From the NCBI RefSeq assembly GCF_030384885.1, contig NZ_CP128613.1: a stretch of DNA of 64,000 bases; one strand, given 5' to 3'. This stretch comes from Escherichia coli (lineage in GTDB: Bacteria; Pseudomonadota; Gammaproteobacteria; Enterobacterales; Enterobacteriaceae). The translations under genes and the position numbers were made by a program. The notes under the pieces were generated by a model that worked only from the letters and a program-made list of their open reading frames with translations, had not been told where the DNA came from and made no database searches. Of the stretch, positions 28,591 through 34,139 are shown piece by piece; the stretch's first letter is position 1; every line of letters starts with the position of its first letter.

Positions 28591-28678
28591 TCCATTTTGC
28601 TGTCACTACCAAAGTAAAAGGGGCTATGATTTCACGTAACCCCTTGATTTATTTGATGAGTTGGCGGTGTCTGAACTG
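28591..28678. repeat. Degenerate relic of prophage end + ssrA-type att junction
   Basis: About 85% identical to 48433-48520: CCATTTTGC(T/C)G(T/C)CACTACCAAAG(T/A)AAAAGGGGCTA...TTTCACGTAACCCCTTGATTTATTT, followed by a diverged att core (GATGAGTTGGCGGTGTCTGAAC vs GGTGGAGCTGGCGGGAGTTGAAC). Confidence 0.6.
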
Positions 28679-28741
28679 GTGCTGTAATTGGTTGAAATAT
28701 TTCATCTAATGTCTGGTTCAACTTTCCTTAGCTGCCTGAAA

Positions 28742-29040
28742 GTTTTTTTGATATTACCCATCAATAATAGGGTTACGGTGTACCACGCCTGACTGATGAA
28801 CTGCGTGCTCAGAGTTACCACTTCAGCGCATAACCGTGGCAGCAGGCCCGGACAGAACAAACGGCTCAGGACATTATCGGTAGGGGACGTACTGGTAGTC
28901 TGTAAACTAAACCGACTGGGGCGCAGTATGCGGCATCTTGCCGTGCTGTTGGAGGAGCTGTGAGAACGTGGTATTAACTTTCGTGCTCTGACTCTACCAA
29001 TATTTGCCCAACAATCGGTGGACGAAAGCTGTAAAAGTAA
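28742..29040 (+). pseudogene. pinH: Pin/Hin-family serine DNA invertase fragment (pinH-like)
   Basis: Translation gives ...GDVLVVCKLNRLGRSMRHLAVLLEEL*ERGINFRALT..., matching the serine recombinase core (..KLDRLGRSM.HL..LV.EL.ERGI.FRSLT..) but interrupted by an in-frame stop and truncated. Confidence 0.55.
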
Positions 29041-29410
29041 AACAATCTGCAATCTCAATATTATTGCGTGATTTTTATGTGAGCAGAAGATATTCATCAG
29101 AAACGATTATGTAAATCATTTTATTTTTCCGACGGCTTCAATGTCGAAAGAAAAGAATACGCCCGTATTTCCTGAATAGATTGACTTTTTTATCCAACCA
29201 CACTTCAGCTCACTGTGTTTAAAAAATGCCTCTTTCTTATGCGGAATATCATCATTTCATCATGATGTCTTTGATGAGCGGTGAACACAATACACTTGCG
29301 CTGTCTCTTCAGGATGAATCCCCTTGGTCTGGTGCCTGTGGGCTGATGTTGCAGCAGAGCTAAGGTTGCTTAAACGCTACTCAGTATTCACTTTTCAGAG
29401 GATGAAATTT

Positions 29411-32400: not shown

Positions 32401-33979
32401 TAATGTTACGCCAGTTAAACTTGAAGGGGTGGTCCGGATTACCGATAGCGCGACATTAACTATCGGAAATGGCGTCGATACGACGCTTGCCGACCTGACG
32501 GCTGCCAGCCGGGGCAGTGTCTGGCTTAACAGCAATAATTCCTGTGCAGGCACCAGCAACTGCGAATATAGAGTAAACAGTTTGCTCCTCAACGACGGTG
32601 ATGTTTATTTATCAGCACAAACAGCAGCGCCTGCCACAACTAACGGTATCTACAATACGCTGACCACCAGTGAACTTTCCGGCAGCGGTAATTTCTACCT
32701 GCATACCAACGTTGCAGGCTCCCGGGGCGATCAACTGGTCGTCAACAACAACGCCACTGGCAATTTTAAAATCTTTGTTCAGGATACCGGCGTCAGCCCT
32801 CAGTCTGACGACGCGATGACGCTGGTGAAAACAGGGGGAGGGGATGCTTCGTTTACGCTGGGTAATACCGGCGGTTTCGTTGATCTTGGGACCTATGAGT
32901 ATGTCCTGAAAAGCGACGGCAACAGCAACTGGAACCTGACCAATGATGTCAAACCCAACCCGGATCCCAACCCAAATCCGAAACCGGATCCAAAACCAGA
33001 CCCAAAACCGGATCCGAAACCAGACCCGACTCCCGATCCAACGCCGACACCCGTCCCGGAGAAACGCATCACGCCTTCTACGGCAGCCGTACTCAATATG
33101 GCAGCAACATTACCGTTGGTCTTTGATGCTGAGCTAAACAGTATTCGCGAGCGGTTGAACATAATGAAAGCGAGTCCACACAACAATAATGTCTGGGGGA
33201 CGACGTATAACACCCGTAATAATGTCACCACCGATGCGGGTGCCGGGTTTGAGCAGACGCTGACCGGAATGACGGTGGGGATCGATAGCCGTAATGATAT
33301 TCCTGAGGGGATTGCGACGCTGGGCGCTTTTATGGGTTATTCCCATTCACATATCGGTTTTGATCGTGGAGGACATGGCAGTGTGGGCAGTTATTCTCTG
33401 GGGGGCTATGTCAGCTGGGAACATGAAAGTGGTTTCTATCTGGACGGTATCGTGAAGCTGAACCGCTTTGAAAGTAACGTAGCCGGTAAAATGAGCAGCG
33501 GTGGAGCCGCCAACGGCAGTTATCGCAGCAACGGGCTGGGTGGTCATCTTGAAACCGGGATGCGATTTACCGATGGTAACTGGAACCTGACGCCGTATGC
33601 ATCGTTAACGGGGTTCACCGCTGATAACCCCGAATATCATTTATCCAATGGTATGGAATCGAAATCAGTCGATACCCGCAGTATATATCGTGAACTGGGC
33701 GCAACGCTGAGTTACAACATGCGTCTGGGGAACGGCATGGAAGTTGAGCCGTGGCTGAAGGCGGCTGTGCGCAAAGAATTTGTCGATGATAACCGGGTGA
33801 AAGTGAATAATGACGGTAATTTTGTCAATGATTTGTCGGGCAGACGTGGAATATACCAGGCAGGTATTAAAGCCTCATTCAGCAGTTCGTTAAGCGGGCA
33901 TCTCGGGGTAGGGTATAGCAATGGTGCTGGTTTGGAATCCCCGTGGAACGCGGTGGCTGGTGTGAACTGGTCGTTCTGA
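29411..33979 (+). CDS. ypjA: Large AIDA-I/Ag43-type autotransporter adhesin (ypjA-like)
   Basis: Extended signal peptide (MNRTSPYYFRRSVLSLLISALIYAPPGMA), approx. 19-residue repeats (GGxQxV...G.A..T.I..GG), Pro-rich PNPDP/KPDP linker, C-terminal beta-barrel ending ...AVAGVNWSF. Start at ATG 29411 (AGAGGA RBS); ORF track begins upstream at 29324. Confidence 0.85.
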   Translation: MNRTSPYYFRRSVLSLLISALIYAPPGMAAFTSTVIGVVNDETVDGVQRVDERGTTNNTHIINHGYQDVYGGVSNGSIIESGGYQDVGGHYNFVGQANNTTINGGRQTIHDGGISTGTIIESGNQDVYTGGISNGTTIKGGNSHISGGTANGTIIDGGSQRVTTQGHVDSTTINKSGSQDITQGSLATNTTINGGRQYVEQSTVETTTIKNGGEQRVYENHALDTTIEGGTQSLNNKSTAKYTQIYSGGTQIVDYTSTSDVIEIYSGGVLDVSGGTATNVTQHDGAILKTNTNGTTVSGTNSEGAFSIHNNVADNVLLENGGHLDVYGSANKTIIKDNGTMSVLANAKADATRIDNGGVMDVAGNATNTIINGGTQNINNHGIATGTNINSGTQNIKSGGKADTTNISSGSRQVVEKDGTATGSNISAGGSLIVYTGGIAHGVNQETGSALVANTGAGTDIEGYNKLSHFTITGGEANYVVLENTGELTVVAKTTAKNTTVDAGGKLIVQKEAKTDSTRLNNGGVLEVQDGGEAKHVEQQSGGALIASTTSGTLIEGTNSYGDAFYIRNSEAKNVVLENAGSLTVVTGSRAVDTIINANGKMDVYGKDVGTVLNSAGTQTIYASATSDKANIKGGKQTVYGLATEANIESGEQIVDGGSTDKTHLKGGTQTVQNYGKAINTDIVSGLQQIMANGTTEGSIINGGSQVVNEGGLAENSVLNDGGTLDVREKGSATGIQQSSQGALVATTRATRVTGTRADGVAFSIEQDAANNILLANGGVLTVESDTTSAKTQVNAGGREIVKTKATATGTMLTGGEQIVEGVANETTINDGGIQTVSANGEAVKTTINEGGTLTVNDNGKATDIIQNSGAALQTSTANGIEISGTHQYGTFSIAGNLATNALLENGGNLLVLAGTEARDSTVGNGGAMQNLGQDFATKVNSGGQYTLGRSKDEFQALARAEDLQVAGGTAIVYAGTLADASVSGATGSLSLMTPRDNVTPVKLEGVVRITDSATLTIGNGVDTTLADLTAASRGSVWLNSNNSCAGTSNCEYRVNSLLLNDGDVYLSAQTAAPATTNGIYNTLTTSELSGSGNFYLHTNVAGSRGDQLVVNNNATGNFKIFVQDTGVSPQSDDAMTLVKTGGGDASFTLGNTGGFVDLGTYEYVLKSDGNSNWNLTNDVKPNPDPNPNPKPDPKPDPKPDPKPDPTPDPTPTPVPEKRITPSTAAVLNMAATLPLVFDAELNSIRERLNIMKASPHNNNVWGTTYNTRNNVTTDAGAGFEQTLTGMTVGIDSRNDIPEGIATLGAFMGYSHSHIGFDRGGHGSVGSYSLGGYVSWEHESGFYLDGIVKLNRFESNVAGKMSSGGAANGSYRSNGLGGHLETGMRFTDGNWNLTPYASLTGFTADNPEYHLSNGMESKSVDTRSIYRELGATLSYNMRLGNGMEVEPWLKAAVRKEFVDDNRVKVNNDGNFVNDLSGRRGIYQAGIKASFSSSLSGHLGVGYSNGAGLESPWNAVAGVNWSF
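32951..33057 (+). repeat. Tandem Pro-rich repeat (KPDP/PNPDP) within autotransporter linker
   Basis: DNA repeats of ccNgatccNaaNcc units encoding KPNPDPNPNPKPDPKPDPKPDPKPDPTPDPTPTPVP. Confidence 0.8.
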
Positions 33980-33989
33980 CCATCAACGA

Positions 33990-34016
33990 AAAAGCCCACA
34001 TCTGTGGGCTTTCATA
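33990..34016 (+). terminator. Putative terminator after autotransporter gene
   Basis: Hairpin AAGCCCACA-TCT-GTGGGCTT directly after the stop codon; weak U-tract. Confidence 0.45.
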
Positions 34017-34139
34017 TCACCAGGAGCCGCGGCTCCTTTGCGTATCCTTTTATGTCTCCTCACCGTCTGGTCGGTGTCTTGCTGAGACTTCTAACTTCCT
34101 GTTTTTGTTGGTGTTGTCCTTACACCGTCCAATCATGAT

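Follow-up and report, generated by a model that had tools for sequence, protein, structure and literature searches.

The window, a 64,000-nucleotide stretch of Escherichia coli DNA, carries the tmRNA gene ssrA with a prophage at its 3' end and, far to the left, upstream of a DNA-invertase fragment (pinH) and the autotransporter gene ypjA, a segment of about 85 bp that resembles the sequence abutting ssrA. The initial annotation had taken this segment for the decayed end of an older prophage, which raises the question of what integration history the locus records. Our analysis indicates that the region 28586-28738 is probably an inert fossil, a junction that remains from two site-specific integrations, one after the other, at the 3' end of ssrA. 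The features involved are listed in Table 1.

Local alignment of 28560-28720 with 48400-48560 showed 74 of 85 identical positions (87.1%, one 1-nt gap) between 28592-28676 and 48436-48521. The alignment score was 60, and 500 shuffles gave a mean of 8.2 and a maximum of 13. The similarity noted at the outset was thus borne out by pairwise alignment, at an identity well above that of shuffled sequence. The window contained two copies of the hairpin AAAGGGGCTANGNTTTCACGTAACCCCTT, at 28617-28645 and at 48461-48489, where 0 would be expected by chance. Of the 5426 complete E. coli genomes, 3173 contained the 62 bp of arm plus hairpin, with a median of 1 place per genome (range 1-3), and those places that were inspected all lay inside the ssrA array; in E. 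coli the segment is therefore not a common intergenic repeat of unrelated loci. In every hairpin copy examined, the distance to the tmRNA or tRNA gene upstream, or to a displaced fragment of such a gene, was 8-23 nt. The hairpin motif does recur across many genomes, but with these shuffle scores, copy numbers and positions, it can practically be dismissed that the similarity comes from chance, from low complexity or from a dispersed REP-like repeat unconnected with integration.

Table 1. Features of the ssrA array in the window, from left to right.
Feature	Position	Strand	Remarks
tRNA gene, CAU anticodon	26188..26263	+	ARAGORN: Met; RefSeq homologue: tRNA-Ile (ileY)
ypjCB (DUF5507 + DUF5508)	27020..28456	+	intact 478-aa ORF; pseudogene in K-12
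Putative degenerate remnant of P2-like (Fels-2/Cartapus-type) attP right arm	28586..28617	+	similarity to phage arm
Decayed copy of ssrA intrinsic-terminator hairpin	28618..28645	-	-14.4 kcal/mol; U-tract interrupted
Displaced last 14 nt of ssrA, TGATGAGTTGGCGG (intact TGGTGGAGCTGGCGG)	28654..28667	-	3'-terminal core used by P4-type integrases (PMC10107115 Table 1)
Distal (attR-side) arm of CP4-57-type island	28668..28738	+	89% L041 arm, 63% K-12 CP4-57 attR arm, 34% ssrA
pinH fragment, residues 38-94 of Gin/Pin-type DNA invertase	28832..29002	+	internal stop
ypjA/ehaD autotransporter adhesin, intact	29411..33979	+	AIDA repeats, pertactin domain, beta-barrel
ssrA-proximal islet end	33980..34139		hairpin with flanking T-runs on both sides, ~33994-34009
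Displaced ssrA 3' fragment, attL of P2-like prophage	34140..34186	-	1-nt deletion TGGTGG-GCTGG (deltaT357)
Defective Cartapus-like P2-family (Elveevirus) prophage	34187..48435		late genes deleted
Phage-borne attP right arm and active ssrA terminator	48436..48497	-	hairpin 48462-48489, U-tract
ssrA (tmRNA), intact 3' end	48498..48860	-	last 38-47 nt prophage-supplied

Judged by its sequence, the relic appears to be a composite junction in three parts and not a prophage end with a drifted att core. In the left part (28586-28653), arm and hairpin matched Cartapus 23345-23425 at 60 of 69 positions, with the hairpin pattern exact. The relic arm showed a decayed direct repeat with 11-nt spacing (GCATCCA...GCTGTCA), which reads GTCGCCA...GCCGCCA in the phage. 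The repeat lies in the stretch of roughly 35 nt before the hairpin that the relic and the phage attP have in common, and looks typical of arm-type protein sites. In folding, the upper stem of the relic hairpin was broken and its tract read UUUUACUUU; the combination of GC-rich stem-loop and U-tract that marks a rho-independent terminator was missing here, and the terminator scan called no terminator.

The middle part is the short core. Compared in the same orientation with the last 15 nt of ssrA, it matched at 11-12 of 14 positions in this strain and at 13 of 14 in the K-12 allele (TGGTGG-GCTGGCAG), a match that is weak alone and is anchored by the flanking homologies. Compared with the CP4-57 core, the window allele had 2-3 additional substitutions. 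A 1-nt core deletion was present in the K-12 and L095 alleles, absent in the L039-type allele and ambiguous in the window. The original state of the core is uncertain because this deletion differs between E. coli lineages; the core length fits the CP4-57 type.

For the right part, the 71 nt beyond the core were compared ungapped in the core-anchored register; global alignment with free end gaps was dropped, its shuffle statistics being uninformative. The identities were 89% to the L041 island arm (z=12), 63% to the K-12 CP4-57 attR arm (z=6.7) and 61% to the L018 arm, against 24 of 71 positions (34%, z=1.5) for ssrA, which is the chance level. The att core described earlier as diverged is thus reduced to its 14-nt 3'-terminal part, and what follows is a CP4-57-type distal arm and not mutated ssrA. 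BLAST gave 80-88% over 122-146 bp, hairpin included. In K-12, the attR of CP4-57 (P4-type integrase IntA) is likewise built of a core, TGGTGG-GCTGGCGG, followed by a AGTCTGAATTGGT... arm, to which the relic arm is 63% identical at fixed register. The junction of about 150 bp is unannotated.

Counterparts of both halves were found in phages and islands. In the free phage genome of Cartapus, hairpin, arm and 47 nt of ssrA are contiguous at 23357-23463, and in Fels-2 the hairpin lies beside the annotated attP, downstream of gpD-ogr. The hairpin was also present in SopEPhi, RE2010 and SEN8 and in P2-like phages of Klebsiella, Yersinia and Cronobacter. The relic shares the hairpin and the arm of about 35 nt with the attP of Fels-2, SopEPhi and Cartapus (ssrA-integrating Peduoviridae); unlike these, it has 14 of the 47 core nucleotides after the hairpin, a degraded terminator and no phage genes on its left side. 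At the five enteric loci with the GCCGCCATTTTGCCGCCAC-type arm (L007, L011, L018, L027, L031), gpD-ogr, or ogr alone on a short contig, lay immediately to the left, and the IMG/VR contigs of this type that were examined (L041, L042, L075, L080, L132) had the same left neighbours. One Citrobacter genome and two IMG/VR contigs have the junction intact, flanked to the left by P2 gpD-ogr and to the right by CP4-57-like genes. In the Citrobacter locus (L018) and in L080 the order was TMP-gpU-gpD-ogr, hairpin, TGGTGG-GCTGGCGG and a AGTCTGAAT... arm, with homologues of ypjF, yfjZ, ypjJ and radC to its right, and an additional antirestriction homologue in L080.

Because the intact junctions show this arrangement, the pinH-ypjA islet is best read as the remnant of a P4-type island, which would place ypjA/ehaD and pinH inside such an island. 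Between 28668 and 34139 the search for an integrase returned none, and only the pinH serine-invertase fragment and ypjA were present. Unlike CP4-57, the islet contained neither intA nor CP4-57-family genes (CbtA/YeeU, DUF987, RadC, antirestriction); its intact counterparts L018, L080 and L030 do carry family genes. The 160 bp at its ssrA-proximal end stood directly after intact ssrA in islet-only and ST131-type strains.

Population states were counted over the 5426 complete E. coli genomes. The relic was present in 3060 of them (56%), K-12 included; ypjA directly abutted intact ssrA in 1386, and 1032 (19%) lacked the entire block between 23238 and about 33985. K-12 carries the islet plus CP4-57 between ypjA and ssrA, and the window carries the islet plus a defective P2-like prophage. 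The successive tandem insertions proposed in the initial annotation are therefore visible as islet alone, islet with CP4-57 and islet with P2-like prophage, and the strains expected to hold a single element at ssrA exist as the 1386 genomes with ypjA abutting the gene. The islet had also been called fixed; with these counts, it is common and not fixed. A synthetic junction query for an empty ssrA site adjoining ypjCB found it in 0 of 5426 genomes. The 330 bp unique to ST131-type strains gave no degenerate relic of core and arm above the shuffle range, the best alignment, on 28673-28738, scoring 17 against a shuffle maximum of 23.5. ST131-type strains do not have the low-GC region to the left of the relic; GC in the block 23000-30000 was 32-42%, compared with 52-58% in flanking core genes. 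The accessory array reaches left to about 23238, past the relic. The CAU-anticodon tRNA gene sits in this low-GC accessory block, left of the relic.

The hairpin half had been assigned to the element of the islet itself, so that the relic would be the far end of an older prophage like the present one, pinH and ypjA its remains and the att core point-mutated. The 87-88% identity of hairpin and arm to the present prophage end agrees with this, as does pinH, which shares 65% amino-acid identity with the tail-fibre invertase of Cartapus and is oriented as in that prophage. However, the hairpin arm is the right end in P2-like prophages, with the body on its left, and pinH and ypjA lie on its right. 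The sequence right of the core is at chance level against ssrA and at 61-89% to CP4-57-type distal arms, and a P2-type event should leave an ssrA fragment of 38-47 nt, as at 34140; the relic has only 14 nt. A single decayed prophage is therefore very improbable. Since the P2-like arm is a right end, the prophage body would have lain left of 28586 and not over pinH and ypjA, and the relic would record two different elements. The view of the segment as a relic of an earlier integration at ssrA, which together with the displaced fragment at 34140 brackets pinH and ypjA, stands.

We infer the order of events, and the phage rather than ancestral chromosomal origin of the hairpin half, from homologies, a junction architecture and population states that were observed directly. 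In the two-element history, a P2-like phage of the Fels-2/SopEPhi/Cartapus type would have integrated first, with an attP made of the last 47 nt of ssrA, the terminator hairpin and an arm of about 35 nt, after which the end of ssrA would have been phage-supplied sequence. A CP4-57-type island would have followed. Recombination by its P4-family integrase in the terminal ~15 nt of ssrA would have pushed the right end of the P2-like prophage off ssrA and created the order of P2 arm and hairpin, 14-nt core and island distal arm. Both elements would then have decayed; the P2-like body, once left of the relic, would have vanished without recognisable trace, and of the island, ypjA and the pinH fragment would have survived between its 70-bp arm and the 160-bp end next to ssrA. 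Later in the lineage a CP4-57-like island would have left the 1-nt scar at 34145/34146, and the present defective Cartapus-like prophage would then have come to supply the functional ssrA 3' end and terminator.

Several findings speak against two elements. Left of the relic there was no P2-like coding remnant, the search for P2 late genes (gpD-ogr) found none, and tblastx of 23000-29420 against Cartapus returned only the arm and the pinH invertase. A displaced 47-nt ssrA fragment was likewise missing on that side, where searches for a further ssrA fragment or attL arm gave only chance 10-15-mers. A phage search with ypjCB and the AT-rich left flank gave no match, and the older P2-like prophage consequently rests on about 68 bp. 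The islet, for its part, lacks an integrase and CP4-57-family genes, and the likeness of pinH to invertases of P2-like phages could suggest another origin for it. The variation of the core allele among E. coli lineages, some with the 1-nt deletion and others without, counts on this side too. In beta- and deltaproteobacteria the hairpin also lies beside tRNA genes whose neighbours look chromosomal, and it is therefore not strictly diagnostic of a P2-like phage.

Three of these observations speak for a reading in which the hairpin and the sequence left of it served as terminator of ssrA in the ancestral chromosome, displaced by the first island, with P2-like phages carrying a captured copy and a single element, a P4-type island, involved: P2 remnants are absent on the left, ypjCB and the flank are without phage homologues, and in other proteobacteria the hairpin has ordinary-looking neighbours beside tRNA genes. 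Against an ancestral terminator stand the 1032 E. coli genomes whose ssrA-glaH interval is shortest, all without the hairpin, and the 1386 others in which functional ssrA is followed by a different sequence without it. Of about 100,000 species-representative genomes just 25 contained the hairpin pattern, a sporadic distribution, and enteric loci with the relic's arm type and readable flanks have it joined to gpD-ogr. The ~35 nt left of the hairpin are shared with the phage attP, including the direct repeat suggestive of arm-type sites, and the left region is itself low-GC accessory DNA missing from ST131-type strains. We therefore regard a displaced ancestral terminator as rather unlikely and retain the two-element history.

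The present att site was examined in the same way. The attL sequence at 34139-34186 matched the ssrA 3' end at 48497-48545 in 47 of 48 positions, with an exact 38-bp block (34146-34183 = 48505-48542). Its 1-nt deletion at 34145/34146 equals the published CP4-57 excision scar CGCCAGC-CCACCA, ssrA deltaT357 (PMC10107115 Table 1; PMC3105296), and by this identity appears to be the scar typical of CP4-57-type integration and excision. The nearest relative, 2013C-4282, also has the scar and carries a CP4-57-like island between ypjA and ssrA. The prophage retains cargo, int (35929-36942, minus strand), C, cox, cII through gpA, cos (44764-44911), a PDC-S06 ATPase, a portal fragment and an M/L fragment. 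The stretch 48326-48542, which includes the attP right arm, matches the attP region of Cartapus at 99% identity. Its hairpin has a 12-bp stem (-19.8 kcal/mol) followed by the U-tract and was called by the terminator scan; it is a canonical terminator in the ssrA sense only, where the mismatch becomes a G.U pair. Excision of the prophage is predicted from the sequence to restore the deltaT357 3' end (the attL allele), which has been shown to inactivate trans-translation (PMC10107115). As attL carries deltaT357, tmRNA function in this strain would depend on keeping the prophage remnant.

The relic is a case of tandem-array stratigraphy at ssrA, an already-known phenomenon. In island arrays at tmRNA genes each island restores the split target gene, the displaced 3' fragment marks its far end, and further integrations build the array. 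According to an abstract by Williams, the attachment site of every enterobacterial element reportedly includes one of a small set of conserved sequences that apparently serves as ssrA terminator, and a P4-subfamily integrase is said to damage att sites routinely. By an Islander-type definition, the islet has a displaced tmRNA-gene fragment in the same orientation (28654-28667) and is variably present among related genomes (relic in 3060 of 5426, block missing from 1032), and its interval holds no integrase; Islander filters would not call it an island. The result has little meaning beyond bookkeeping, namely the exact anatomy of a junction carried by 56% of complete E. coli genomes.

The hairpin itself extends beyond enterics. 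A module of about 40 nt, CAAAG-N-AAAAGGGGCTACGYTTTCACGTAACCCCTTGATTT, was near-invariant in sequence and not just in structure. In enterics it followed tmRNA genes at a distance of 8-23 nt, and in beta-, gamma- and deltaproteobacteria it also followed genes for tRNA-Asn, -Thr, -Met, -Lys, -Leu and -Phe. Terminators are normally conserved in structure only, which is why the module stands out. For the non-enteric hairpins, no Cartapus or IntA homologues were found and, within 10 kb or less, no displaced tRNA fragments; no IMG/VR contigs had the beta-type flank, and a literature search and an Rfam scan with the hairpin sequence found nothing. It is quite doubtful that the module is more than a copied terminator, that is, a mobile sequence-specific functional element left by integrative elements at RNA-gene targets; in that case it might bind a protein or act as a signal for recombination or processing. 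This cross-phylum conservation is the sole feature of the locus that might deserve dedicated study.

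The window holds the E. coli ssrA region in inverted orientation relative to K-12, and its features are collected in the table. The relic, a segment resembling the phage end next to ssrA, carried no RefSeq annotation and comprised three parts.

Features of the ssrA region in the window, in order
Feature	Coordinates	Strand	Remarks
gab operon, glaH, low-GC amylase-like gene			First features in window order
CAU-anticodon tRNA	26188-26263	+	ARAGORN: tRNA-Met; RefSeq homologue: tRNA-Ile (ileY)
ypjCB	27020-28456	+	DUF5507 + DUF5508
Relic	28586-28738		Between ypjCB and pinH fragment
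Relic, phage arm plus hairpin	28586-28653		60/69 identity to Cartapus attP
Relic, last 14 nt of ssrA	28654-28667		
Relic, CP4-57-type arm	28668-28738		Core-anchored comparison
pinH invertase fragment			Right of relic arm, before ypjA
ypjA	29411-33979		After pinH fragment
Displaced ssrA fragment	34140		
Prophage, 14 kb	34187-48497		Between displaced ssrA fragment and ssrA
ssrA	48498-48860	-	Then smpB, ratA, bamE, recN

Comparisons of the third part took their register from the core, the ssrA 3'-terminal nucleotides used by P4-type integrases. This part showed 34% identity to ssrA (24/71, z=1.5), 63% to the K-12 CP4-57 attR arm (z=6.7), 61% to the arm of the Citrobacter locus L018, and 89% to that of the IMG/VR contig L041 (z=12). 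The initial annotation had described a diverged att core, but this part is not diverged ssrA. BLAST of the relic to L018, L024, L030, and L041 gave 80-88% over 122-146 bp, and in length the relic core fits what PMC10107115 (Table 1) gives for ssrA-targeting P4-type integrases.

When species-representative genomes and IMG/VR contigs were scanned for the hairpin, the same junction turned up with its two neighbouring elements still alive. In L018 and the IMG/VR contig L080, TMP-gpU-gpD-ogr on the left was followed by the hairpin, TGGTGG-GCTGGCGG, and the AGTCTGAAT... arm. To the right of this arm were ypjF/CbtA, yfjZ/YeeU, ypjJ, and radC homologues (L080 also had an antirestriction homologue), an order that matches the distal end of CP4-57 in K-12. 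L041 showed a yfjQ homologue to the right and P2 late genes to the left. Because these intact counterparts retain both neighbours, we read the relic as a junction to which a P2-like prophage contributed its right end and a P4-integrase-type island its distal one. This arrangement requires the P2-like body to have been located left of 28586, with the island on the right-hand side.

Left of the relic, neither a P2 coding remnant nor a further ssrA fragment was found, and phages gave no match to ypjCB and the AT-rich left flank. Right of the arm, the pinH fragment, on the plus strand and with an internal stop, covered Gin/Pin invertase residues 38-94; ypjA was intact, and a 160-bp stretch past it ran up to the displaced ssrA fragment. 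Tandem-array stratigraphy at tmRNA and tRNA genes was reportedly described by Williams in 2003. The relic represents this stratigraphy, a phenomenon already known (PMC4383910). On the E. coli-like IMG/VR contig L132, compared with window 23787-26309, ileY plus 46 bp ran directly into part of gpA from a Cartapus-like prophage; the right end and hairpin of this prophage adjoined a delta-core and a different island arm. The stacking order here is reversed (P2 first, P4-type second), and the phage involved is recent.

The prophage at ssrA is a relative of phage Cartapus (Peduoviridae, Elveevirus) with an internal deletion. Its int through gpA showed 94-96% identity to Cartapus, and cos was kept, as were portal and M/L gene fragments. 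Window 48326-48542 matched Cartapus 23247-23463 with 99% identity, so in the free phage genome the arm runs without a break through the hairpin into the final 47 nt of ssrA. In Fels-2 the same motif adjoins the annotated attP, directly past gpD-ogr, and the hairpin motif was also observed in SopEPhi, RE2010, SEN8, and P2-like phages of Klebsiella, Yersinia, and Cronobacter. In the ssrA sense, this hairpin had a 12-bp stem (-19.8 kcal/mol) followed by a U-tract and was found by the terminator scan; G.U pairing of its stem mismatch is possible on the ssrA-sense strand only. It is the ssrA terminator, supplied by the phage. The relic copy was degraded as a terminator (-14.4 kcal/mol, U-tract broken up), and the scan found nothing there. 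An ancestral chromosomal ssrA terminator is disfavoured as the source of the hairpin: the shortest E. coli state and islet-only ssrA both lack it, it is sporadic among species representatives (25 loci), gpD-ogr is attached to it in enteric loci with the relic's arm type, and the shared arm holds an 11-nt-spaced direct repeat.

The one-element origin initially proposed for the relic and the islet (pinH fragment plus ypjA block) fails, as topology and the arm comparison both contradict it. The repeat itself was confirmed by pairwise alignment of 28592-28676 with 48436-48521 (74/85, 87%), and chance similarity between the two segments is excluded (score 60; shuffles mean 8.2, maximum 13). Hairpin copies in the window numbered exactly two, with none expected. 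Fragment 34139-34186 matched the ssrA 3' end at 47/48 positions and shared an exact 38-bp block with it.

Among 5426 complete E. coli genomes, the relic was present in single copy in 3060, K-12 included, and the 62-bp arm plus hairpin in 3173, at 1-3 places per genome. ypjA adjoined intact ssrA directly in 1386 (e.g., strain 163). The arrangement glaH, 0.68 kb, ssrA, with all of 23238 to about 33985 missing, was observed in 1032 (e.g., ST131). ypjCB stood beside ssrA in none, and the exact ypjA/attL junction of the window occurred in 22. From these states and the low GC of block 23000-30000 (32-42%, compared with 52-58% in flanking core genes), it follows that the relic is enclosed by a larger accessory array and that the islet, earlier called fixed, is common but not fixed. 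The tRNA gene lies within the low-GC block missing from ST131-type strains and is therefore itself accessory. ypjCB is an intact 478-aa ORF here; in K-12, strain 163, and the nearest relative, an internal stop or frameshift makes it a pseudogene. The whole relic-region allele of the window strain is rare, with at least 99% identity in 4 genomes only and about 93% in most. In a 330-bp stretch unique to the ST131 type (L153 11668-12000), two pieces resembled degenerate core-plus-arm relics by eye, with an alignment score inside the shuffle range.

The window attL, the displaced ssrA fragment at the left prophage end, reads TGGTGG-GCTGGCGG, the 1-nt deletion left in ssrA by CP4-57 excision (PMC10107115; PMC3105296). 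The nearest relative, 2013C-4282, with flanks 99.8-100% identical to the window, carries at the same junction a CP4-57-like island with intA beside ssrA and the same scar. Therefore, the window lineage lost a CP4-57-like island and gained a P2-like phage, in either order. attL kept the scar (34140-34153) and the phage-supplied ssrA 3' end (48498-48512) was intact, which places the crossover 5' of position 357, so prophage excision would give back the scarred allele. This deltaT357 tmRNA allele was shown to be inactive in trans-translation (PMC10107115); by extension, excision of the defective prophage (int and cox present) would restore a trans-translation-dead ssrA. For P2-type elements at ssrA, the gene is published as mostly intact after excision.

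Between cos and the portal remnant, a 778-aa AAA_13 ATPase (45039-47375, +) fills the variable slot held by a DUF4145 gene in Cartapus; it matched the PADLOC candidate defence family PDC-S06 (E=1.5e-266), with weaker likeness to PrrC and LmuB. Between attL and int, ThyX-like (Thy1) and dCTP-deaminase/dUTPase-like proteins (34347-35902, -) stand where Cartapus has a RES-domain gene. PADLOC gave no match for this pair, which may serve in defence or in manipulating the nucleotide pool.

The hairpin module of about 40 nt, CAAAG.AAAAGGGGCTACGYTTTCACGTAACCCCTTGATTT (window 48455-48497 and 28611-28653; loci L008-L029), was near-identical downstream of genes for tRNA-Asn, -Thr, -Met, -Lys, -Leu, and -Phe, at a distance of 8-23 nt. 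A search for elements associated with these tRNA-adjacent modules gave none, and the nearby ORFs (KatG, GMP reductase, ModA, CFA synthase, hydrogenase) looked chromosomal on visual inspection. The hosts were Comamonadaceae/Rhodoferax, Chitinimonas, Nitrosomonadales, Allopusillimonas, Spongiibacter, and Desulfovibrio MAGs (beta-, gamma-, and delta-proteobacteria), so that a terminator is conserved at sequence level across classes.
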